A DNA stretch of 56,699 bases, the filler included, from Sphacelaria rigidula (taxonomy: Eukaryota), in the NCBI GenBank assembly GCA_964200075.2. It is 6 parts of 6 records of this genome, joined end to end, with 100 filler letters (N's around TTAATTAATTAA, not from the genome) between each part and the next. Parts side by side here need not be neighbours in the genome. Positions count along the whole stretch, not along the records: positions 1 to 9,368 come from CAXNAA020008663.1; 5 more parts are not named here. One strand, given 5' to 3'. A program made the translations under genes and the position numbers. Every line of letters begins with the position of its first letter. Within the stretch, counting starts at the first letter, position 1. This document shows positions 118-47,334 of the stretch, one piece after another. Below the pieces are notes generated by a model. That model was not told where the DNA came from. It made no database searches and worked only from the letters and a program-made list of their open reading frames with translations.

Positions 118-724
118 TTCATTATAGATGAAGTTGGAACTGCCGGGAGCTCCGAACCCCCCATATCTGTACAGCCAAATCTGGGACCCCCAGGTAACCG
201 CGACCTGACCGATGGAGCCGGCCCAGCCGCAGGGGACCACTTTATACCTGTCCCTTGACGGGTGCACGTGATCCAGCCGTCTACCTTCTCGACTGCGGTC
301 AACATCCTTACCCAATTAATAAGGAAGAAAATCATTGTTTCGCCTTGACGGTTGCACACGTCGGACGAGTCATTACCTGTCGAAACGAGTGCACTTGTGG
401 ATGCTTGTTTAAAACACAGCGAGAATGACTCGTGCGCTCGAGTCATCAACTGCTGTCATAACGAGCAACCACTCGTTTCTCGAGTCATTCAGTTTTTTCA
501 CAACGAGCAATGATTCGTGTGCTCGCCCCATTATTATTTACGGCCAACAACAAGCAGCCCAACGAGTGCGATTGCCACGAGTCATACTAGTGCTCGTCCG
601 ACGTGTGGACGGTTGCTACCGTCACCCCGAAGTCCCGCGACTTTCCACATCAATGCTAAACTCTCAGTCTCACGAAAATATTGCTTATGGCGAATGTCAG
701 GCCGGAAAAAAACGTGGAATCAAG

Positions 725-3259
725 CTACCCCTGTCGCGGGTGGGATACGGCCGCGGACATGTGACGAGAGGGACCGAACACGTCTGGTTCTGACTTCACG
801 TCGGCTCCACCTTTCTCAGGCAACACATCACCGCCTGCTGCCACATCGAATATCGGCTCGACCTCCACGGTCAGGCGTTGCCGCTTTGTGTTCCTTCTGC
901 TTGTGATGCCTCCACCATAGCTCCTGTTCCGGGTAGCGCTACTGGACCCGCCTTCTTCCATGCTGTTGTAACTGCTGGGTCGAGAAGTAAGCACTTCGCC
1001 ACTATTTCCTCTACCCTCAAAAACTCGCGGAAGCGCAACCGTTGTCTCAACTTCCATCTTCATGCACGTCTCTGCCCCACCCAGACAAGCTGCATCTACT
1101 GTCGCCGCGCCGAGAGGCGGTCCCGAACCGGCAGGCGACGTTATCAGAGGATTCGCATCCCATCGCCCAACGCGAATTGCACGCGAGCTGCCACGAGAAT
1201 CAGCGTTACGAACACCATCGCTCGTGTCGGGCCCGGCATCCAAGGGATGGCTGGGCGCTTCACGCCGTCCATCGATACCGACACCAGTCACTCTCGCCGA
1301 CAAGTCATCGTTCAGGCGGTTCTTTTCCTGGACAAGTCCTCCGGCAACAAACGCCATGGTCAAGTCATGTGCATGATGACGTGTACTCCCGTGCTCCCGC
1401 ACCTGGTCAGCACAACGCTGCGGGGCACACTCATCGCTGTTCATAAAGATCGTTCCTACGCGGTCGTGCGTGGCGTAGAATCCCATTTCCTTGCTGCCTG
1501 TAGCATCAACCAATGATTGTGAGGAGCAGTCCTCGCGGCTGAACCGCTGGCTTACTACATTGGCTATGCCCACTTGGGCGTACGTGGCACGTGATTCGAC
1601 CTTTGTGCTACCGGCTGCACCGAACGATGGCTGCTCGGAGCAGCCCTCATTGCCGCACCGCGTTCTCACCACATCGATCATGCCCGGCCGGGCGTGCGTG
1701 GCGCAGAATTCCGCCTTCCTGCCACCGGCTGCCCCGACCGATGGTTGCTTGGAGCAGCCCTCGCTGCCGCACCCCTTGCTCACTACATCGACCATGCCCG
1801 GCCGGGCGTGCGTGACGCAAAACTCCGCCTTGCCCCCGGCTGCACCGAACGATGGCTGTTCGGAGCAGCCCTCGCTGGCGCACCGCTTGCTCACTACATC
1901 GATCATGCCCGGCTGGCCGTGCGTGGCGCAGAACTTTGGCTTCTCGCTACCGGCTGCACCATACGATGGCTGTTTGGAGCAACCCTCGTTGCCACACCGC
2001 TTGCTTACCACATCGATCATTCCCAGAGCGTGCGTGGCGCAGAACTCCGCTTTGCTACCAGCTGCACCAAACGATGGGTATTTGGAGCAACCATTTTTGC
2101 CGCACCTTTTGATTTGAACACGGATCATGCCGATTCTGGCGTGTGTGGCGCAGAACTCCGCCTTCCCACCATCGGCCGCACCGAACGTTGCGTGTTTGGA
2201 GCAGCCCTTGTGACCGCACCGTCTACGTGTTGTGACCATGCCCGGCCGCGCGTGTGTGGCGCAGAACTCCGCCTTCTTGCCACCGACCGTACCGAACGAG
2301 GGAAATTTGAAGCATCCCTCGCTGCCGCATCGCCTGCTCAACACGTCGACCATGCCCGGCCGGGCGTGTGTGGCGCAAAATTCCGCCTTCTTGCCCCCGG
2401 CCGCACCACGCGATGGGTATTTGGTACAGCCCTCGCTGTCGCACTGCTTGTTTACGACGTTGACCATGCCGGCCCGCGCGTGTGTGGCGCAGAATTCTGG
2501 TTTTTTGCTACCATCTGCACCATACGATGACTGCTTGGAGCAGCCCTCGTTGCCGCACCGCCTGCTCACCACATCGACCATCCCCACTCGAGCGTGCGTG
2601 GCGCAGAACTCCGGCTTGCTACCGGGTGCACCAAACGATGGGTATGTGGAGCAGCCCTCGTTGGTGCATCTCTTGATTTGAATCTGGATCATACCAACTC
2701 GGGCATGTGTGGAGCAGAACTCCGCCTTTCCACCACCGGCTGTACCGAACGTTGCGTGCTTGGAGCAACTCTTGTTGCCGCACTTCTTGGTTTTAACATG
2801 GATCATGCCCACGGCGGCGTGCCTGGCACAGAACTCTGCCTTCCGCGTATCGGCTGCACCGAACGATGCCTGTTTGGAGCAGCCCTGGTGGCCGCACCGC
2901 TTACGTCTATTGACCATGCCCGGCCGCGCGTGTGTGGCGCAGAACTCCGCCTTTTTGAAGCCGACCGCACCGAACGATGGGTATTTGAAGCATCCCTCGC
3001 TGCCGCACCGATTACGCACCACATTGACCATGCCCGGTCGGGCGTGTGAGGCGCAGAATTCTTCCTTCTTGCCACCGGCCGCACCATACAATGGGTATTC
3101 GGTACAGCCCTCGCTGCCGCACCGCTTGCTCACTACATTGACCATGTCCGGCCGGGCGTGTTTAGCGCAGAACTCTGCCTTCCTGCCAGCGGTGGCACCG
3201 AACGATGCGACTTTGACGCAGCCCTCGCTACCGCAACGTTTGTTCACTACATTGACCAT
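725..3259 (-). CDS. EsV-1-7 cysteine-rich repeat protein (IMMEDIATE UPRIGHT/EsV-1-7 family), about 844 aa, apparently intronless
   Basis: 14 intact 36-38 aa repeats of consensus MV.VV.KRCG.EGC.K.PSFGA.G.KAEFCATHAR.G (C-x4-C-x15/16-C-x2-H), then 2-3 degenerate repeats and a low-complexity tail. First in-frame ATG is at 3259; the ORF track starts at GTG 3265. Confidence 0.88.
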   Translation of the reverse strand: MVNVVNKRCGSEGCVKVASFGATAGRKAEFCAKHARPDMVNVVSKRCGSEGCTEYPLYGAAGGKKEEFCASHARPGMVNVVRNRCGSEGCFKYPSFGAVGFKKAEFCATHARPGMVNRRKRCGHQGCSKQASFGAADTRKAEFCARHAAVGMIHVKTKKCGNKSCSKHATFGTAGGGKAEFCSTHARVGMIQIQIKRCTNEGCSTYPSFGAPGSKPEFCATHARVGMVDVVSRRCGNEGCSKQSSYGADGSKKPEFCATHARAGMVNVVNKQCDSEGCTKYPSRGAAGGKKAEFCATHARPGMVDVLSRRCGSEGCFKFPSFGTVGGKKAEFCATHARPGMVTTRRRCGHKGCSKHATFGAADGGKAEFCATHARIGMIRVQIKRCGKNGCSKYPSFGAAGSKAEFCATHALGMIDVVSKRCGNEGCSKQPSYGAAGSEKPKFCATHGQPGMIDVVSKRCASEGCSEQPSFGAAGGKAEFCVTHARPGMVDVVSKGCGSEGCSKQPSVGAAGGRKAEFCATHARPGMIDVVRTRCGNEGCSEQPSFGAAGSTKVESRATYAQVGIANVVSQRFSREDCSSQSLVDATGSKEMGFYATHDRVGTIFMNSDECAPQRCADQVREHGSTRHHAHDLTMAFVAGGLVQEKNRLNDDLSARVTGVGIDGRREAPSHPLDAGPDTSDGVRNADSRGSSRAIRVGRWDANPLITSPAGSGPPLGAATVDAACLGGAETCMKMEVETTVALPRVFEGRGNSGEVLTSRPSSYNSMEEGGSSSATRNRSYGGGITSRRNTKRQRLTVEVEPIFDVAAGGDVLPEKGGADVKSEPDVFGPSRHMSAAVSHPRQG

Positions 3260-3552
3260 GCCCACGCCGGCATGCGTGGCGTAGAATTCCGCCTTCCTAC
3301 CAACGGCTGCACCAAACCATGGTTGTTTTGGGGCAGCTCTCGTTGCCGCACCGCTCGTTGACTACATCGACTATGCCCGGCCGGGCGTGAGTGGTGCAGA
3401 ACTCCGCCTTCCTGCCACCGTCTGTACCGAACGATGGGTTTTTGGAGCAACCCTCGCTGCTGCACCGCCTGTTCACCGAACTGACAATGCCCGGTCGGGC
3501 GTATGTGGCGCAAGCTCCGCCTCCCTGCTACAGGCTGCACCGAACGATATCG
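3260..3552 (-). pseudogene. About 2.5 additional EsV-1-7 repeats upstream of the ORF, broken by two frameshifts
   Basis: Manual translation gives SFGAACSREAE/.CATYARPGIVSSVNRRCSSEGCSKNPSFGTDGGRKAEFCTTHARPGIVDVVNERCGNESCPK/QPWFGAAVGRKAEFYATH, with frame breaks near 3513 and 3327. Confidence 0.75.
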
Positions 3553-3590
3553 CCCTAGACTAGAGAAGGGGTCAATGCGATGGTTGTTTC

Positions 3591-3614
3591 GCTGCTGCTG
3601 CTGCTACTACTGCT
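3591..3614. repeat. (CTG/CTA)n microsatellite
   Basis: gctgctgctgctgctactactgct. Confidence 0.7.
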
Positions 3615-5373
3615 CCTGCGATCCTGCGATCCACACCGCCACAAATCCGCTAACCAAGCCAGCTCACGAATCCAGCAGCAGCCTGCATCAATCATACAGA
3701 AAAAGTAAACGATGTTACCGTGATCATGATATTTTGGTGGCTAAACACGTAGGCTGGAGTATATTTGACAATCCAACCATCGAATCGACAGGCGACAAGA
3801 ATAGCTACTGCAGCACGGGGGAGACGGTGCTTTTCGATAAGCATCGCAGTGCCGATAATGATTCTGCAACACCGTGGGAAGGGACGGGTGCTCGACTCTA
3901 AACACGCACAGAAATCCCTAGTGCCGAGATCGCCCGTAAAGCCTCTGACCATTACAATTGCTGAATAAACGACGCGCCGACGACCACTTTGCTTTGCGCG
4001 CCCTGCATCGGGCGTCACACAGTCCGGTCAGTATATGTGAGTGATAGTCTTCCGCAATAAACTAGTAGCGCCAAAGTCCATACCAGTTCCGTTGCGGATT
4101 AAGCGTACTGTCATGGGCTGTTGGGAAACATCACCCTATCCTGTGTGGATAGGCAAAGGGTGCTCTACTGCATGCGGTGACGGTAGGCACCGGTAGGGGA
4201 ATTGTATGTGTCACTCTTCCCGCCATGCGGAACCCACCGGGAAGAATGTTTTCAGGGGCTGTACTCACATCAGTCGCCCTTGACGTCACCTGTACCGAAA
4301 AGCTAGAGAGCTTCGAACGAGCGAGGTTTACAGAAATGCCTCCCTCTCGGAAGGTTGGTGTTACGCCGTTGCTGTCCATTTTCCTGGAAGGTGTTTTCAC
4401 AACATCCTGCAACGCTTCAACTAGTCGGTATGAGCCCTCACGAGCTGGTGGAGTGCTGAGTCCGGAAGTATTGTACCACGACATCTGAACGTAGGAACAA
4501 GGACTCTTGGAGGTGCTCATACTTCCATCAACCGGCGCCCTTCGGCACAGGCCGTAGGCATGACACGAAACAGGAGTTATCGACAGGCCATTCGGCCAAT
4601 AAACGTCGGAAGCTGTGGATCTGTATGCATGTCCGTACAGCTATTTCCTGCGGCTGTGTGTACTGTGTGCAGATGCACAGCGGCACTGGCTGCTTTGTGA
4701 TGTTGCCGCATTCTGCGCTGCGCCGTCTGTCGATACCGTGCAAGCCGTACTTTTGCGTACGTAATATCTGTACAATTGGTTGCACCATGCCAGATGGACG
4801 CTTTCCCGACGACCCCCTGCTACGACAACTTTGATTTCTCGGGGAACAGTCAACTTTCCTCAACGAGATAAGCGCAGAAAGCATATCTCGAGGTAAACGT
4901 ATCTCGGAGAATTTCTTTCTTTGAAAGGTTCCATAAGAAGCGGTTTGAGGAATACAACCTGGTGAGAACGCTGGAAATTGTTGTTTGAACCATGACAGGC
5001 AGCGCTCAACTTTTTTGAGGTCTGCTGTGTTTATTGCTTGCATTTCTGACCGCGAGTCCCAGCAATACAGAATGTCGCTGTCGCATGAAAACAAAATAAA
5101 AAACGACTGCGGACATGCAAGAGTAAGTAGCTGGAGAAGTGGAGCTTTTGCCCCGCGCTCGAGGACATCAGGTTGTCTATCATGCGGTTATGGGAGAAGC
5201 GTCTGCTGTTGTACTGAGTGCAGTGAGCCAGGCAACTTTGACGTGTTGCAATTGTGTTCATTTTGATTTTGGTCAATTCTACGGCATCTGAGTAATGACC
5301 AACTTCTCATTTCTTGTTTTCATGTCGCACTTACAAGTGTGCGCATCCTACGGATAGTACAGTACAGTACAGT

Positions 5374-9368: not shown

Positions 9369-9468
9369 NNNNNNNNNNNNNNNNNNNNNNNNNNNNNNNN
9401 NNNNNNNNNNNNTTAATTAATTAANNNNNNNNNNNNNNNNNNNNNNNNNNNNNNNNNNNNNNNNNNNN
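9369..9468. other. Artificial contig linker (N44-TTAATTAATTAA-N44)
   Basis: 100 bp spacer with stop codons in all six frames. Confidence 0.97.
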
Positions 9469-14565: not shown

Positions 14566-16330
14566 GGCGTGCATCGAATCATAGCAGCCAGCGTCCCTCC
14601 ATCGCTTTCGGAATCCCAATCTGCTGAGGCGTGTTGGTGGCAACAAACTCAATGCGAACTCTCGAGCAGTATGTGTGAAATTCGTTCTCTGTGTACTCCC
14701 CTCCTTTGTCAGCACGGAGTCGCTTGACACGGGCTCCACGTGGGATCACTTCCGTGTGGATGAAAGTCTGGAATGTCTTCAGAGCATCGACCTTTGACTG
14801 CGTGAGATATACGTACTTCGATCGCGTCAGAAAGTCCGTCAACTTGGTCATGTATTTGAACCCCCAAATTGCTTCTGGGGTAATCAGTCCCATCATATCA
14901 CCAAGTATTAGTTCGTACGGACGAGATACTTTGTAGACGGCAGTCTTGGGGTGAGCCTGTTGTTTACTTTTGCTCAACGCACACGCATCGCACGGAGAAA
15001 GATTCCCCGTGAAAATCCCTCCATTGCCGTCTACGCCTCGTATTGTGTGAGGTGTCTTGCTAGACACGTATCCGAGGCGCCGGTGCCACCATTCTGCGTC
15101 CGCTGTTGTAAATGTAATGCGTGAGAGGACCGCGTGCTCAGAGGACCGCGCCGTCGTTCAAAATACCTCAGGATCGACGATTTTCAAAACCAATCGGGTC
15201 AGTCCCTGCAGGTACCACGCCCCTGACCCTAACCCCAACACTAACCCTAACCATAGGGATTTTCAAATTCCGATGCGGTCCTCTAAACACGCGGTCCTCT
15301 CACGCATTACAGTTGACATCGCCACTGTATTTGATTTTTCCCCCTCGGCTGAAGCCACCTGCTTTCCTGTACTCGCGCCGGCCGCACGACCCACACGTAT
15401 GATGAGTGTGTATAAACCATGGTCATGGAGTGACTGTTTCAGGGGTAGTTGGAAAGACGCGACTTCCAAGCGTGGATTCGCCGGGTCGAACACGACGTTG
15501 ATTCCTCTTGTGACAGCGTTCTTGACGGTGAACAAATGGCGCCCCAGACCTGGTACTACATAAGATGGGAGAGATACTTCGTGAGAGACTCCATGTTGGT
15601 ATGTCACCTTTCTCAGGACAGTAACTGAAGCTGTAGCATTTAACGCATGTCCTCCGGCCGCAGTTATTTGGAAGGGGTTAGGTAAAATTTTGTTGACAGG
15701 AAAAGTCTCCAGTAAGCCAGGGTTCAAAAAGTTGTCAACAAAATTGACGGTTGTCCCGCTGTCGACCAGTGGGGAGAGTAGAGTGTCAAGCCAGCAAAGC
15801 TACACCCATAGTAGGATGTACCGTTTTACTTTCCGTGGCTTCCCCAATCGCTACATATATCCGACCGTCCCCGGGGGGTGGCACTCCAGGCTGAATCGGT
15901 CTCCCAGCAGCTGGGTATCCTGTTGCTGTAGCATCAGCCGTTGGTTGCGGCTGGTGTAAGGGTGCACCGATGACTGCGTCAGAAGGGTACGCCGCCATAT
16001 TCGCGTAGTGCGCCACGCTAGCAGCGGCATTCTCTTTTTAAATGCGGCAGTCAGCTTCGTTATGAGTTTTGGAACGATGATAAGAACACCACTTCGCCGT
16101 CTTTTCTTCACCGTTGGTATTATTGGTGCCCGACTTACCCCCCTTTTTTTCTTCTTCCCTCTACATTGCAATTTAGAACGCCAGTCTCCAAATGTGGCAA
16201 TGTCATCCCTGTCAAAGACGTTCAGCAGGCGCATTGCCTGTGTAACACCTCTCTTCGCCTCGGTCATGTTTGCTTTCGGGACGTAAAAGTTGTGCCCAAA
16301 GAACCGCACTTCGGTCAGTGTGCTGACCAA
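14566..16330 (-). pseudogene. Copia gag-protease-integrase remnant
   Basis: Motifs as listed for the element; frameshifted and interrupted by a MITE at 15113-15311. Confidence 0.85.
15113..15311 (+). mobile_element. MITE family A (TGT...ACA, internal CCCTAA repeats), copy 1
   Basis: 37 bp TIRs tgtaatgcgtgagaggaccgcgtgc(t/c)..gaggaccgc. Removing it, one GTTG duplicate and 4 extra bases (TAAA) restores the copia frame AMSTADAEWWHRRLG. Confidence 0.9.
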
Positions 16331-18835: not shown

Positions 18836-18935
18836 NNNNNNNNNNNNNNNNNNNNNNNNNNNNNNNNNNNNNNNNNNNNTTAATTAATTAANNNNNNNNN
18901 NNNNNNNNNNNNNNNNNNNNNNNNNNNNNNNNNNN
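18836..18935. other. Artificial contig linker
   Basis: N44-TTAATTAATTAA-N44. Confidence 0.97.
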
Positions 18936-20349: not shown

Positions 20350-20754
20350 GTCCGATATTTACCGGGTATACCCCCGGATTTGCCGAGTATCCCATACCGT
20401 GGTATGCGTGGGTATGGTAGGTATGAGTGTTGAAAATACCCGATTGAGCGGGTACGGTAGGTACTAAAATCTCGAAAATACCGTGGTATCGTAGGTATCA
20501 TAGGTATGAGTTTTGAAAATATCCGATTGGGCGAGTACGGTAGGTATTGAAATCTCGAAATACCGTGGTGTCGTAGGTATCGTAGGTGTGAGCTTTGAAA
20601 ATACTCGATCGAGCTGGTACGGCATGTATTGACATCTCGAACCACCGTGGTATCGTGGGTATCGTAGGTATGGCATTTGAAAATACCCGATCGGACCGGT
20701 ATCGGTAGGGTATGAGATGTCCCAAATACCGGTACCGGGTACCTACCTCACCTA
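20350..20754. mobile_element. Repeat family D copy with four internal tandem units of about 82 bp
   Basis: Unit ataccgtggtatcgtaggtatcgtaggtatgagttttgaaaatatccgat...; left boundary approximate. Confidence 0.75.
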
Positions 20755-28302: not shown

Positions 28303-28402
28303 NNNNNNNNNNNNNNNNNNNNNNNNNNNNNNNNNNNNNNNNNNNNTTAATTAATTAANNNNNNNNNNNNNNNNNNNNNNNNNNNNNNNNNNNNNNNNNN
28401 NN
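28303..28402. other. Artificial contig linker
   Basis: N44-TTAATTAATTAA-N44. Confidence 0.97.
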
Positions 28403-34553: not shown

Positions 34554-35140
34554 AAAAGTTCCAGCCAAGAAGGTCAAAACATGTCAGGCAAACCCATGTT
34601 AATATAAAACTCAACGTAGGCGCACACAAAAAGGGAACACGTCACGACCGATCCCGAAAAGAGAGGGGGTATGTGTGTACGGAGCGGTTGGGCAAGAGTG
34701 TAATTATACCAGACGGGGAGGTTCGGTATATGCAGCGCTTGCTCCTAAAACTCTCAACCGAAAAAGTTCCAGCCAAGAAGGTTAAAACATGTCAGGCAAA
34801 CCCATGTTAATATAAAACTCAACGTAGGCGCACACAAAAAGGGAACACCTCACGACCGATGCCGAAGAGGGAGTGGGTGTATGTGTACGGAGCGGTTGGG
34901 CAAGAGCGCAATTATACCAGACGGGGAGGTTTGGTATATGCAGCGCTTGCTCCTAAAACTCTCAACCGAAAAGACAAAAATTGAAAAAAAATACAGACAA
35001 CATATGACACAAAAAGGCACGTCATGACCGATCCCGAAGAGGGAGGCGGCATTCGCGTGCGGAGCGATTGAACAAGAGCGCAAGTATTCCAGACGTGGGC
35101 GTCAGGTATGGCTAGCGCTTGCTCCGTTAATTCTTCCATC
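34554..35140. repeat. Tandem duplication of about 208 bp (two near-identical units plus one decayed) in the gypsy 3' non-coding region
   Basis: aaaagttccagccaagaagg.aaaacatgtcaggc at 34554 and 34762. Confidence 0.85.
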
Positions 35141-35725: not shown

Positions 35726-37639
35726 TCAGGAGTCATCTGCATCCCAAGTGGTGTCCGTGTTCCGTAGAACGGCTATTCCGAGTTCGCCTTGGTCGTGTCG
35801 TTGGAGGCACCAGGATCCCCTCCGAGCGGTCGGCTCCTCGGTGTAGTACGCATCATCCAAGCGAATCTTAAGGGGGCTCGGGTCATCAAGGAAACGGATA
35901 AAGTAGGAGTGGTCAGATGCAGGGTCGATCAAATGAATTTTACCCAACCACCGCAGAGAATTCAAGGCCTTATACCAAAAATACGCCCCTTTTGGTAATC
36001 GTTTTCCGTGAAAACAATGCAGGTATTGTGAACGCAAAATAAGACTATGGCCTGTCACAACACACCGCGCTGAGTGTTCACGAGCAAGTTCCCGAGCGAC
36101 AGCTCCCTTGCGAATCGACCGATATATCTCTTATTCAACGGGCGGTGTTGGACGGTATCTCCTACCCAGTACAGTAATATTTCCCGACGAAAATGACGCA
36201 AATCAACCTCACGCTCCCATGTAACACGCATGATACCCTTCCAATGTGTTTGATACATTACCGCTATCTTACCTCCACGACCACGAACCAGTTGATGACC
36301 CGAAATCCTATCTACCTCAACGCGTTCCAGGGGTGCGTCCGCATCCTCGACCGTCATATGATACGGCGGAGTTTTGATGGCATACTTGGTCAACACATAC
36401 TGGCTAAGCCCTACCGACAGTTGTTTGGGCATGTCAGAGGAGTCATGAGGGGGGATACACGGTTTGCATCGTAGCATCGAGACGCGATTTTTCGGTTTCA
36501 AACCAGGTTCATCCCTGGGAAATCTAAATACAAACGTTTCGCTCCCACCGGACTCTTGTCGGGTGCGGTAGCGCTCGGACCAACAGCTCAAACTTCCCAA
36601 GGACCAGTAGTCCAATTCAAGGATAGTTTCGCCTTCAACACTTTATCCAAAGATGATGATTCCGAGCTAGCCCCTTGATTGATGGTCTTCACATCGTTAT
36701 ATACCCATGCCCATTGGCCTACCTTCCACACCGAGCGGTTATGCACTACATCATCCAACATCGAGTTCGCCTTGGCCACCTTGACCCAATTGATTTGGTT
36801 CTGTTCTCGTACCGCTTTATATGCAAGATGAAGACGATTTCTAACCGACAAATGATACTCTGCAACGTCACGATCCCGACTTTGATGTCCACCTGCATTT
36901 TTGCGTTCGAATACCGTTAAGGGTAACCGAGGCATGCGTCCAATATGAATTTCATTCGGCGACAATTCCGTAGCGGCATTGACTGAATTGTTGTAGTTCA
37001 TCTGGACAAGGGGCAGGTGCAGATCCCAGTCCATCTGTTTCTCATTTGCTACAGCAGCAAGCATCTGTGCCATCGTATGGTTCACTCCTTCCGTTCCACC
37101 ATTGGTGGAAGGATGGTATGAACTAGTGAAAATGCGATGGGTACCCAAAAGGTCACTGACGGCGGCAGAAAGTTTGCCTAAACATTGCGGGCCGTTGTCA
37201 GATAATAAGCGTTTGGGCACGCCCCACAGTGGGATGTACGTGTAGACAAGCATCTTGGCGGTACCTTCCGCGGTATAACTACTGGGGGGGACGGCGTGCA
37301 TCACCTCATGTCGACTAAATCTATCCGTACACAACAAAATATAATTATTCCCACTATCCGTCAGGGGCAAAGGACCAAAATAGTCCCACGAGATTACTTC
37401 ACCAGGCCCGTTTGGGAGTGGCATGGAAACAATCGGCCAATGAACTGTTTGACGAGAAGTTTTTCGCGCCTGACACAAAAGACAACGCCTCACCCACCAA
37501 CGACAACACGGATCCATACAAATCCACCGATAATAGCGTTCCAACATCTGGGAGGTCCTAATGGCGCCTAAATAAGTCGATGCCTGTGAATGGCATTCGT
37601 GGAGAACCCATGGGCGCAGTAGCGTCGGAACGTAGATAA
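35726..37639 (-). mobile_element. Ty3/gypsy integrase (Zn finger, DDE core, GPY/F-like, chromodomain, PWWP/Tudor-like), frameshifted (copy 2)
   Basis: 319 aa ORF with CLLC, WDYFGPLP, LSDNGPQ, YHPSTNGGTE; continues in other frames through I.GH...Y..HWKG....TWERE..L; cut at its 5' side by a family E element. Confidence 0.92.
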
Positions 37640-37768
37640 CAGTGTTTTCGTGAGATTAAGAGTAGATTATACGATTGAGAGTGGCTTCGATCATCCGCTT
37701 TAAGTGGGTCATTTTTTTATTCCACATGTGCTCTTCTTTACCTCCACCACTTGCGTGTGCTTACAGCT
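37640..37768 (+). mobile_element. Family E TIR element end interrupting the gypsy pol
   Basis: cagtgttttcgtgagattaagagtag..., matches the reverse complement of 1-117. Confidence 0.6.
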
Positions 37769-37868
37769 NNNNNNNNNNNNNNNNNNNNNNNNNNNNNNNN
37801 NNNNNNNNNNNNTTAATTAATTAANNNNNNNNNNNNNNNNNNNNNNNNNNNNNNNNNNNNNNNNNNNN
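37769..37868. other. Artificial contig linker
   Basis: N44-TTAATTAATTAA-N44. Confidence 0.97.
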
Positions 37869-43089: not shown

Positions 43090-45680
43090 CAACTAGAAAT
43101 TTGGGATGAATTGTGTTACACAGCTATTGCTGTTCGTCATATGCGGTGAAACAGAACATGGAATTGTCGGCAGGAAGGAGGGAGGAATCGTTGCTTTTGG
43201 GTCGTTGCATGTATAGTTAGTGATGATTATTTCACCTGTGTGTTGTAGAAGTCTTGGATGATGGCACTTGTACCCAGGACGAGTATGTGTGTGGTTGGTC
43301 AGTTGGACATGTGCGGTGAAGTAGGGCGCAGAACGGTCGGCAGGAAGGAGGGAGGTGTCGTTGTTTTTCTGTCCTTGCATGTGTTGTAGAAGTCTTGGAT
43401 GGTGACAGTTATACCCAGGACGTGTATGTGTGTGTGGTCAGTTCAAAATGTGGGATGGATGTTGTCACACATTGTTGGTGTTCTTATGTGCGGTGACGCC
43501 GAGCGCAGGAGGGAGAGAGGATTCGTTTTTTTTTTCGGTCCCTGCATGCTTAATCATCGTATTCTATTATTATCGTATTAGTGTGTTGTACAAGTCTTGG
43601 ATGGTAACAGTTCTACTCAGCACGTGTATGTGCGTGAAGTCAGTTCGAAATTTGGGATGGATGTCGTCACACATTGTTGATTTTCATCATGTGGGGTGAA
43701 GTGGAGTGCGTATCGGTCGACAAAAAGGAGGAAGGAGTCGTTGTTTGTCGGTTCTTGCTTGTATAATTATTTCATCATTGCTACATCAGCCGGTTTTTGC
43801 TATAGCAGTTTGGTACCCCGCTCCCGTAGGGTCCATGGATGCATGGATTCATATCCAAAAGAGTGCGGTCGTTGTAGATAAGCCGCAATCATTCCCCACG
43901 GCTTTTCCGTTTTATAGGGCTCGATATAATGGTGGTTCTGCGCAAGACCTTTTCCGCCGAAGCCATGTGGCAGAAGCCGACCATTTCTTTTTGTTCCCTC
44001 TGTTTTTTCTTCTCTTTTCTTTCATTCGTAATCCACTTTGTTGTCCCGTCCTTCCTTTCCTGTTTTCTTCCACCCTCCCCTTTCGCGAGTGTTGCAGTTT
44101 TATTTTGTCTCGGATACGTCCATCATGTTGCCTCAGCTGGATCTCTGGGGGATCAGTTGCAGTGCGACGATAAAATCAAATCAGTCAAATCAGTTGTGTG
44201 TGTTGTACAAGCCTCGGATGGTGACAGTTCTACCCAGGACGTGTATGTGTGTGTAGTCAGTTCGAAATGTGGGATGGGATGTTTTCACACATTGTTGGTG
44301 TTTTCATTGCGGTGGCGCCGAGCGCAGGACGGTCGGCAGGAGTGAGAGAGGAGTCGTTATCCGTCGGTCCTTGCATGTATAATCATCGTATCATGTTGTT
44401 ATCGTACTTGTGTGTTGTACAAGTCTTGGATGGCGGCAATTCTACCCAGGACGTGTATGTGTGTGTAATCAGTTCGAAATTTGAAATGGATGTCACTCAA
44501 TGTCGATGTTCGTCATGTGCGGTGAAACCGAGCGCAGATCGGTCGGCAGGAAGGAGGAAGGAGTCGCTGTTCGTCAATTATTGCTACATTAGCCGGTGTA
44601 TGCCAGAGCAGTTTGGTACCCCGCTTCCGTAGGTTTCATGGATGAGTGGTTTCATATCCAAAAGAGTGCGTTGTAAATCAGCCGCGATCGTTTCGCACGG
44701 CCTTTTTTGTTTCCCAGCACTCGATATGAATGTGGTTCTACTCAAGACCTTTTCCGCCGAAGCCATGTGGCAGAGGCCGACCATTTTTTTTCTGTTTTTG
44801 TTTTTTTCCATTCGTGGTCTACTCTGTTGTTCTGTTTTATGTTCTCGGGGGGGGGGGGTTCCTCTCCTTCCGCGAGTGTTTTAGTTTTGTTTTGTCTCGG
44901 ATGCGTCCATCATGTTGCCTCAGCTGGATCTCTGAAAGGTCAGCTGCAGTGCGACGATCAAATCAAATCAGTCAAATAATTTAAGTTGTGAAAGTCTCGG
45001 ATGGTGGCAGTTCTACCCGGGACGTTCATGTGTGTGTAGTCAGTTGATAGTTGGGATGCATGTTGCTGTCACACATTGTTGATGTTCTTCATGTGCGGTG
45101 AAGCCGAGCGCAGGACGGTCGGCAGGAAGAAGGGAGGAGTTGTTGCCCGTCGATCCTTGCATACATAACCATCGTATTCTATTATTATCGTACTTGTGTG
45201 TTGTAGAAGTCTTGGATAGTAGCCGTTCTACCCGGGACGTTTATGTTTGTGTAGTCAGTTCGAAATGTGGGATGCATGCTGCTGTCACACATTGTTGATG
45301 TTCTCCATGTGCGGTGAAGCCGAGCGCAGATCGTTCGGCAGGAAGGAGAGAGGAGTCGTTGTTGGTCGGTCCTTGCATGGATGATCATCGTACTTTATTG
45401 TTATCGTACTTGTGTGTATTGCGGAAGTCTCGGATGGTGGCAGCTCTACCCAGGACGTGTATGCGTGTGTAGTCAGTTCGAAACTAGGGATGAGTGTCGT
45501 CACAAATTTTTGATATTCTTCATGTGCGGTGAAGCCGAGCGCAGATCGGTCGGCAGGAAGGACAAAGGAGTCGTTGTTCGTCGGTCCTTTCATGTATAAT
45601 CATGATTTGCTTTTCATGTGTGTGTTGTCTTGCACGGTGGTAGTTACACTCAGTACGAGTATGTGTGTTTTTGGTGGCAG
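43090..45680. repeat. Tandem array of about 9 units of ~205 bp with two copies of a ~400 bp spacer block
   Basis: Unit tgtgttgtagaagtcttggatggtg.cagttctacccaggacgtgtatgtgtgtg...cggtgaagccgagcgcag..cggtcggcaggaaggag; blocks at about 43785-44195 and 44585-44980. Confidence 0.88.
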
Positions 45681-47234: not shown

Positions 47235-47334
47235 NNNNNNNNNNNNNNNNNNNNNNNNNNNNNNNNNNNNNNNNNNNNTTAATTAATTAANNNNNNNNNN
47301 NNNNNNNNNNNNNNNNNNNNNNNNNNNNNNNNNN
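47235..47334. other. Artificial contig linker
   Basis: N44-TTAATTAATTAA-N44. Confidence 0.97.

Follow-up and report, generated by a model that had tools for sequence, protein, structure and literature searches.

Does an array of fifteen EsV-1-7 repeats in the brown alga Sphacelaria rigidula read nucleic acid and, if so, does it do so one repeat at a time through a single variable residue? The question is raised by a locus on the minus strand of a 56,699-nucleotide stretch of S. rigidula DNA (assembly GCA_964200075.2; six parts of six records joined end to end, hereafter the window). The original prediction, made from this DNA alone, saw there a fixed repeat scaffold around one hypervariable position and proposed a nucleic-acid reader of the TALE, PUF or C2H2 kind, diversifying against viruses or transposons. 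The explanation we favour, with slightly better than even confidence, is that the locus is a real EsV-1-7 gene whose zinc repeats would form a rod with a basic, nucleic-acid-binding side.

An EsV-1-7 gene with fifteen in-frame units

By translation, the minus strand is open over 725-3265 (846 codons). Stops close all three frames upstream of the ATG at 3259, leaving it as the earliest usable start in frame; it matches the conserved linker Met at which four annotated S. rigidula relatives (P0001, P0002, P0013 and P0028) begin. The open reading frame (ORF) that starts here matched the EsV-1-7 family of Pfam, PF19114, with 644.3 bits (cut-off 25; E 4.6e-199) in 15 stretches, and the 15 in-frame units recovered with a hidden Markov model (HMM) of the single unit had E-values of 8e-22 to 3e-25 (Table 1). 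Cutting the protein at each C-x4-C gave units aligned over 38 columns, in which the ligand pattern C-x4-C-x16-C-x2-H recurs in tandem about every 38 residues. All 15 units have the first and the second Cys, and 14 of 15 have the third Cys and the His (58 of 60 zinc ligands intact); unit 15 lacks both of the latter, and the other 14 have all four ligands. This pattern is far beyond chance, and judged by its Pfam and HMM matches the locus is a newly seen member of the known EsV-1-7 family. The best named relatives among the homologues listed are brown-algal, namely S. rigidula proteins at 45–55% identity. In the six-frame unit-HMM scan this was the only EsV-1-7 gene of the 56.7-kb window.

The repeat had been described well: all 15 tetrads following the second Cys match the earlier list in the same order, the counts of C-x4-C (all units) and C-x2-H (14 of 15) agree with ours, and the linkers are basic as stated, the unit junctions (columns 38 and 1) being mostly Lys or Arg. 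The FG or YG said to be common to all units needs qualification, as the Gly at column 14 is found in 15 of 15 units but the preceding Phe or Tyr in only 13, unit 8 having Arg and unit 14 Val. The limits given to the array, 1470..3259, did not hold; in the DNA it reaches about 3548 as frameshifted, decayed units, and a 16th, degenerate unit lies at its other end. Tandem Repeats Finder reported a period of 114 bp with 17.2 copies and 74% matches over 1606-3548. The units differ from one another by 13–38% in DNA, and a nucleotide identity matrix showed units 2–7 and 8–12 to be an old block duplication (best partners 2/8 83%, 3/9 87%, 4/10 81%, 5/10 82%, 6/11 83% and 7/12 80%), so the 15 units are not independent samples.

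A proposed basic, acid-free side and nuclease-fused viral relatives

Columns were compared across the best 120 of 149 homologues passing E 0.001 (465–1481 residues), which were chosen by likeness to this ORF; from 794 unit-HMM hits the 676 that span the model were kept (117 proteins, 673 unique repeats) and 118 partial ones were dropped. Across these family repeats the columns fall into two sets, one basic and acid-free, the other tolerant of acidic residues. Asp and Glu make up 0–3% at columns 1, 9, 10, 12, 19, 20, 28, 36, 37 and 38, with 1, 9, 19, 20, 28 and 38 conserved as basic, vs. 22–35% at columns 3, 5, 16, 18, 22, 26 and 30. In the window's own array 89 Lys and Arg stand against 44 Asp and Glu, giving an isoelectric point (pI) of 9.4.

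An AlphaFold2 (AF2) model of units 6–9, with the window array's own unit quartets and 110 homologues as alignment input, reached a predicted local distance difference test score (pLDDT) of 93.3 and a predicted template-modelling score (pTM) of 0.63. The four-unit model is mostly irregular, with short strands or bridges at columns 13–14, 23 and 33–34, a one-turn helix at 25–27 and, in one modelled unit, bridges at columns 1 and 10. Conservation at columns 9, 11 and 13 (Lys, Pro and Phe/Tyr) alternates with variation at columns 8, 10 and 12; because of this alternation on an extended segment, we infer that 8, 10 and 12 point away from the core. The model superposes on the predicted EsV-1-7 of the virus (Q8QNQ2 in BFVD; E 1.3e-16, TM-score over the query (TMq) 0.70, both structures being predictions), and altogether 27 predicted viral structures in BFVD resemble the array at E <= 0.001, including EsV-1-7 and several that UniProt names 'Endonuclease'. 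No solved structure resembling the array was found, by sequence or by fold search.

What the array is fused to in its relatives bears on its ligand. An E-x-D-E-x-x-H motif is present in 68 of the 120 homologues, about 100 residues past the array and usually 12–15 residues after R-P-D. Most of these homologues are unnamed metagenome proteins, and their nearest protein-atlas clusters are giant-virus clusters, one of them auto-named 'Endonuclease (Fragment)'. When 40 of these proteins were aligned, D, RPD, E-x-D-E, H and R-x-N-P proved invariant, an NPD motif being a further mark of the C-terminal domain, and the AF2 model of P0040 (pLDDT 87.2) has a C-terminal alpha/beta domain. Among the fold matches of the relatives' C-terminal domain a DNA homing endonuclease was best, most others were restriction enzymes or resolvases, and cap-snatching RNA endonucleases also occurred; Foldseek alone gave no significant match for the P0040 domain. 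Pfam holds no named family for the domain, PHROGs gave nothing useful (best 'homing endonuclease', E 0.076, for P0019), and the nuclease-bearing profile searched by sequence against solved structures returned chance-level matches only. In the nuclease-bearing relatives (alignment columns ~520–680) the canonical repeats give way gradually, ahead of the nuclease, to two or three Cys-rich knuckles that are shorter and differently spaced. A second kind of fusion is reported from Ectocarpus, where a Tc1/Mariner transposase carries an N-terminal EsV-1-7 domain (available part of PMC12477816).

By analogy with these fusions, and given the pI and the transposase, the array plausibly, and on balance probably, binds nucleic acid, the support being association and hence indirect; to this extent the proposed nucleic-acid reader stands. 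In the explanation we favour, each unit would bind one zinc through Cys2, Cys7, Cys24 and His27 (numbered by column), as predicted from the invariant Cys and His, and a conserved G-M-V-(N/D)-V linker would let successive units pack into a stiff rod. The ten acid-poor columns would give this rod a basic side, which would bind nucleic acid, most likely double-stranded DNA, a preference that comes from the nuclease-fused giant-virus relatives carrying the same array. In those relatives the array lies ahead of a Vsr-like nuclease of the homing-endonuclease type and would aim its cut; in the alga a tail bearing a nuclear-localisation-like basic cluster takes the place of the nuclease, and the protein may act as a DNA-binding regulator, as proposed for the EsV-1-7 family. 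The best candidates for repeat-specific contacts would be column 10, the alternating columns 8 and 12 and possibly the nearby linker columns 36 and 37. Any code, if one exists, would involve several residues at best.

The same relatives could point to RNA. RAP domains follow helical-repeat RNA binders, and the array might likewise bind single-stranded RNA, the viral nuclease-like domain then acting on RNA as Vsr-like RAP/FASTK domains do. The cap-snatching endonucleases among the fold matches are consistent with this, and the title of one paper calls FASTKD4 a Vsr-like mRNA regulator. We nevertheless regard an RNA reader as quite improbable, since a DNA homing endonuclease heads the fold matches and restriction enzymes or resolvases account for most of the rest, the transposase fusion reported in PMC12477816 favours DNA, and an active nuclease is suggested by the acidic and His residues that are invariant in the viral domain.

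Column 10 and the other variable columns

The position singled out by the original prediction is the third residue after the second Cys, column 10. When diversity was partitioned into that between the repeats of one protein and that overall, column 10 ranked first of the 38 columns within proteins (0.82, vs. 0.86 overall), followed by columns 36 (0.77), 8 (0.74), 37 (0.73) and 12 (0.70), and it came top in 1966 of 2000 bootstrap resamples (103 proteins with at least four full repeats). Among the 52 proteins that lack the nuclease motif it again ranks first, and among the 65 that have it second, just after column 12. Columns 3, 4, 5, 15, 16, 18, 26, 29 and 30, by contrast, reach 0.85–0.90 overall but only 0.57–0.67 within proteins, so that their variation is largely common to the units of one array. 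Acidic residues account for 1% at column 10, Lys and Arg for 31%, and Gln, Asn, His, Ser and Thr for 39%; Arg and Gln together make up about half, followed by Ile, His, Lys, Asn, Thr and Ser. The ranking of columns 10, 36, 8, 37 and 12 as those that individualise repeats, and their exclusion of acidic residues, is what the present analysis newly adds.

Total variability gives a different picture. Over the 676 repeats the entropy of column 10 is 3.49 bits, one of about a dozen similarly variable columns (column 8 3.69, 15 3.65, 3 and 26 3.59, 29 3.44 and 4 3.43 bits), with about a dozen at or above its value. Within the window's array, where column 10 is Q6 Y5 H2 F1 V1, it has 1.97 bits and comes third after columns 19 (2.37) and 34 (2.10), columns 37, 30, 36, 4 and 38 following at 1.7–1.9 bits. 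Tyr (TAC), His (CAC) and Gln (CAG/CAA) are one-base neighbours that fill 13 of the 15 units, and this part of the small alphabet is accounted for by single-nucleotide codon steps.

Selection within the array was estimated from Nei–Gojobori counts over its eight nearest unit pairs. Pooled over these pairs, the ratio of non-synonymous to synonymous substitution (dN/dS) is 0.33, and ligand and core columns have a corresponding ratio of proportions of differences (pN/pS) of 0.14; the intact part of the array is under purifying selection. At columns 8, 10, 12, 36 and 37 pN/pS is 0.63, vs. 0.67 at the other variable columns, and positive selection at these five shows no sign in their 10 non-synonymous and 5 synonymous differences, which are all there are. 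Column 10 changed in two of the eight pairs and column 8 in none, the mean being 2.0 changes per column. Between arrays, we compared 12 non-overlapping close protein pairs (46–82% identity over matched repeat columns), whose targets may differ; at column 10, 57% of the 69 repeat pairs matched by position have different residues, a pace like that of other variable columns. Columns 8, 10 and 12 combine into 422 distinct triplets among 673 repeats, so the repeats do not fall into discrete types. When 481 adjacent-repeat pairs were submitted to direct-coupling analysis, the signal was mostly same-column coupling from shared descent, strong for many columns, with weak contacts such as 11–35; columns 8, 10, 12, 36 and 37 are absent among the 40 top-ranked coupling pairs listed, and no face could be defined from them.

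The claim of one hypervariable position in a fixed scaffold is overstated for this array, in which columns 19 and 34 exceed column 10, and that of diversification against viruses or transposons is not supported, there being no sign of diversifying selection and an average rate of change at column 10. The small alphabet of Tyr, Gln, His and Phe is there, but is partly explained by single-base steps. What survives is that, taken over the family, column 10 stands out by its within-protein diversity and its near lack of acidic residues, though not by total entropy. The per-column entropy and dN/dS that had been called for, run here on the 120 database homologues and on this array respectively, put column 10 first within proteins and showed no excess of amino-acid change there.

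A strict code of the TALE or PUF kind, in which this one residue of each repeat specifies one base or a short word and diversifies against viruses or transposons, is on these data very unlikely. Column 10 does lead the family in within-array diversity, its prevailing residues (Arg, Gln, Ile, His, Lys, Asn, Thr and Ser) are typical of base contacts, and the residue is kept in six of the eight nearest duplicated unit pairs. Against this, many other columns vary, the triplets do not sort into repeat types, selection for change was not detected, column 10 is unconserved between close arrays, the local run of Tyr, His and Gln has its explanation in codon steps, and nothing links repeat number or order to a target.

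The same variability could belong to a protein-interaction scaffold, a rigid zinc rod binding proteins like LIM, RING or B-box domains, with column 10 its least constrained exposed residue. The fast change of column 10 between close arrays suits this, as do the equal pN/pS of the column-10 group and other variable columns and the dozen columns equally variable in total. An unconstrained surface should, however, accept Asp and Glu, which the 1% at column 10 and the 0–3% at columns 12, 36 and 37, beside 22–35% elsewhere, do not reflect; the pI of the array and the recurrence of the repeats ahead of a nuclease and a transposase (the latter from the available part of PMC12477816) likewise tell against a scaffold, and we hold it to be unlikely. 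That column 10 serves as a contact residue is possible, though less likely than not.

Several observations weigh against a rod with a nucleic-acid-binding side, or against the part given to column 10 in it. The outward exposure of columns 8, 10 and 12 and their common face are deduced from the alternating pattern and a secondary-structure string. In this array column 10 is third rather than first in variability, most of its residues are one base apart, and the candidate columns bear no mark of positive selection. The 57% turnover fits a weakly constrained surface residue equally well as a shifting specificity. The homologues were picked for likeness to this ORF and their partial repeats set aside. 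The window protein has no nuclease, so the argument from the nuclease is one of association with relatives that share the repeats only, and Vsr-like folds are found in RNA-handling proteins too. Finally, the broken 5′ units, the short upstream ORFs before the ATG and the loss of two ligands from unit 15 indicate that this copy may be decaying.

Decayed 5′ units and a probable spliced transcript

Within 3239-3560 on the minus strand, 5′ of the ATG, lie two and a half EsV-1-7 units that have decayed and contain frame changes and stops. The first is split by a one-base frame change that adjoins a C4A4 run, and has Tyr at the third ligand position. In contigs that span 3117-3455, drawn from four public runs (three studies), there is no indel at the frame change. 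We therefore reject an assembly error behind this frameshift; being present in four runs, the frame change is a property of the genome. Contigs of two runs from one study, X5 and X9, cover 600-3683 unbroken and stop fitting at 3683 and 3685, at a pyrimidine-rich run followed by CAG, with no depth from 3759 on, while those of the DNA-like runs X1 and X4 continue. This is probably the start, at 3682, of a large exon of a spliced transcript, the RNA label of X5 and X9 being a guess: no listed run is recorded as RNA, and four are 'RNA?' guesses. The resulting leader of 423 nt contains the decayed units and short upstream ORFs, the latter overlapping the start region, and on their HMM matches the units at 3357..3512 are decayed 5′ units of the array that now lie in the transcript leader.

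Whatever the family does, this copy could then be a transcribed, decaying gene without present function. The frameshifted 5′ units with their stops, the frame change recurring in four runs from three studies, the short upstream ORFs, the missing third Cys and His of unit 15, the degenerate unit 16 and the transposon fragments elsewhere in the window are all what such decay would leave. Yet a frame of 844 codons has stayed open across units that differ by 13–38% in DNA, with a dN/dS of 0.33, nearly all zinc ligands are intact, the tail is collinear with those of paralogues to the stop codon, and annotated paralogues begin at the same Met. We consider a functionless copy rather improbable.

A tail shared with Sphacelaria paralogues

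The protein ends in a non-repeat tail that aligns by BLASTP with the tail of P0001 (46% identity over 245 residues, E 6e-54), collinear to the last residues, and with that of P0003 (43% identity, E 7e-44); the collinearity with S. rigidula paralogue tails extends up to the stop codon. No Vsr-like nuclease domain was found in it (hhalign probability 0.07%). A basic cluster in the tail, RRNTKR, stands at residue 788, and psi-K-x-E motifs are found at 733 (MKME) and 821 (VKSE). We take the cluster to be nuclear-localisation-like and the motifs SUMO-site-like, and they may mark a nuclear signal and SUMO sites. Of the two psi-K-x-E motifs, the one with which the tail ends is conserved and follows the other by about 90 residues; further brown-algal homologues have V-K-x-E endings of a similar kind.

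The rest of the window

A provirus context was rejected: the 13 window ORFs scanned gave retrotransposon integrase fragments only and no viral core gene, and from its surroundings the array locus looks like a host nuclear gene. Elsewhere the window shows a strong AT skew at 28–36 kb and a strong GC skew at 42–46 kb. Paired 44-base N runs at 9369-9468, 18836-18935, 28303-28402, 37769-37868 and 47235-47334, with a spacing of ~9467 bases, look like masking and not biology.

Table 1 Features of the EsV-1-7 locus and of the surrounding window
Feature	Position	Strand	Basis and details
Main ORF, 844 aa	725..3259	-	ATG 3259-3257 to TAG 727-725
15 in-frame EsV-1-7 units, 36-38 aa, consecutive	1547..3238	-	Six-frame unit-HMM scan, Pfam PF19114
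Column-10 codons, 15 units	1631..3211	-	Codon read-out; GTC TAC TAC CAG CAC TAC CAG TAC TTT CAC TAC CAG CAG CAA CAG (units 1-15); high-coordinate bases 3211, 3097, 2983, 2872, 2758, 2644, 2533, 2419 (units 1-8) and 2305, 2194, 2080, 1972, 1858, 1747, 1633 (units 9-15)
Non-repeat C-terminal tail, 240-247 aa, pI about 6	728..1447	-	BLASTP vs. paralogues
Degenerate 16th unit, without zinc ligands	1448..1537	-	Unit HMM, E 2.8e-4, 9.5 bits
Upstream unit split by a one-base frame change	3239..3353	-	HMM matches in two frames, 3239-3328 and 3327-3353
One full (3357-3467) and one partial (3471-3512) unit, other frame, stop-closed	3357..3512	-	Unit HMM, translation
3′ splice acceptor, probable	3683..3684	-	Pyrimidine-rich run then CAG; contig ends of X5 and X9
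Retrotransposon integrase fragment, gag_pre-integrase + rve	14579-15157	-	ORF domain scan
Retrotransposon integrase fragment, Integrase_H2C2 + rve	36588-37655	-	ORF domain scan
Tandem repeats	20394-20709, 34554-34972, 44985-45603		Periods 82, 208 and 215 bp

Relation to known systems and meaning for the family

The window array shares its repeat, ligand spacing and tandem layout with the EsV-1-7 family (PF19114), named after gene 7 of the virus EsV-1 and including IMMEDIATE UPRIGHT (IMM) of Ectocarpus, and its predicted geometry superposes on that of the viral protein. It differs in size, with 15 intact units where the unit HMM finds 2–11 in the 120 best-listed homologues (Pfam counts 14 in P0016), in the decayed units carried in its leader, and in its end, which is a tail subfamily of its own common to Sphacelaria paralogues, while the N-terminal domain of IMM is lacking. 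From the giant-virus proteins that join the same N-terminal repeat array to a Vsr-like nuclease it is set apart by having no nuclease domain. Across 31 genomes of brown algae and sister groups the family has been counted at 2018 proteins, frequently encoded in tandem (10.1101/2024.02.19.579948, available part), and according to the available text of 10.64898/2026.04.27.720984 none of the Ectocarpus members has another Pfam domain.

Some EsV-1-7 repeats of the homologues P0006, P0017, P0054, P0066 and P0089 match Pfam Zf_WRKY19 (PF24906) near or above the cut-off, a hint that this repeat, which is said not to occur in land plants, may have a relative there. Other repeats among the homologues match the zinc-binding domain of coronavirus nsp13 weakly.

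Tandem small units, a basic face and a few positions that vary within an array are features that TALE, PUF and C2H2 arrays have in common with this one, but EsV-1-7 arrays have many variable columns, no discrete repeat types and no fold match to them. The classical C2H2 ligand pattern is C-x2-4-C-x12-H-x3-5-H, whereas the window units offer Cys, Cys, Cys and His at spacings of 4, 16 and 2. For the nuclease-fused viral relatives the nearest parallel is I-Bth0305I, an 'EDxHD' homing endonuclease (PDB 3r3p) whose DNA-binding region is N-terminal and whose Vsr-like catalytic domain is C-terminal (available part of PMC3239194); the domain order is alike, but I-Bth0305I uses NUMOD and helix-turn-helix motifs in place of zinc repeats (PMC3239194, same part). 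The plant EFFECTOR OF TRANSCRIPTION factors, as described in the available part of PMC6585611, likewise combine zinc- and DNA-binding Cys/His repeats with a GIY-YIG domain in a nuclear regulator; they differ from the EsV-1-7 fusions in having another nuclease fold, placed N-terminal of the repeats. In the available texts on EsV-1-7, PF19114 and giant-virus or homing-endonuclease proteins, supplements apart, we found no description of the nuclease fusion, of a repeat-to-base code or of repeat-specific positions.

A bolder reading takes the DNA-binding rod further: EsV-1-7 arrays would be an unrecognised modular class of DNA readers, in which columns 8, 10 and 12, on an exposed strand, and the two linker residues 36 and 37 of each unit contact a few successive base pairs and the array spells out a long target, giant viruses using it to aim a Vsr-like homing nuclease and brown algae having domesticated it, minus the nuclease, as a large family of transcription regulators. 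We think this improbable; if it were true and the contacts followed rules, it would provide a new programmable DNA-binding scaffold.

The EsV-1-7 expansion is among the largest in brown algae and includes the developmental regulator IMM. For this family our analysis names a surface, a basic, acid-free face on which column 10 is the most repeat-specific position and columns 8, 12, 36 and 37 are its likely partners, and links it to the viral relatives fused to a nuclease, in which a target site could be looked for experimentally. If the DNA-binding mode is true, it would explain the role of the family in brown-algal development, and might give a new DNA-targeting module.

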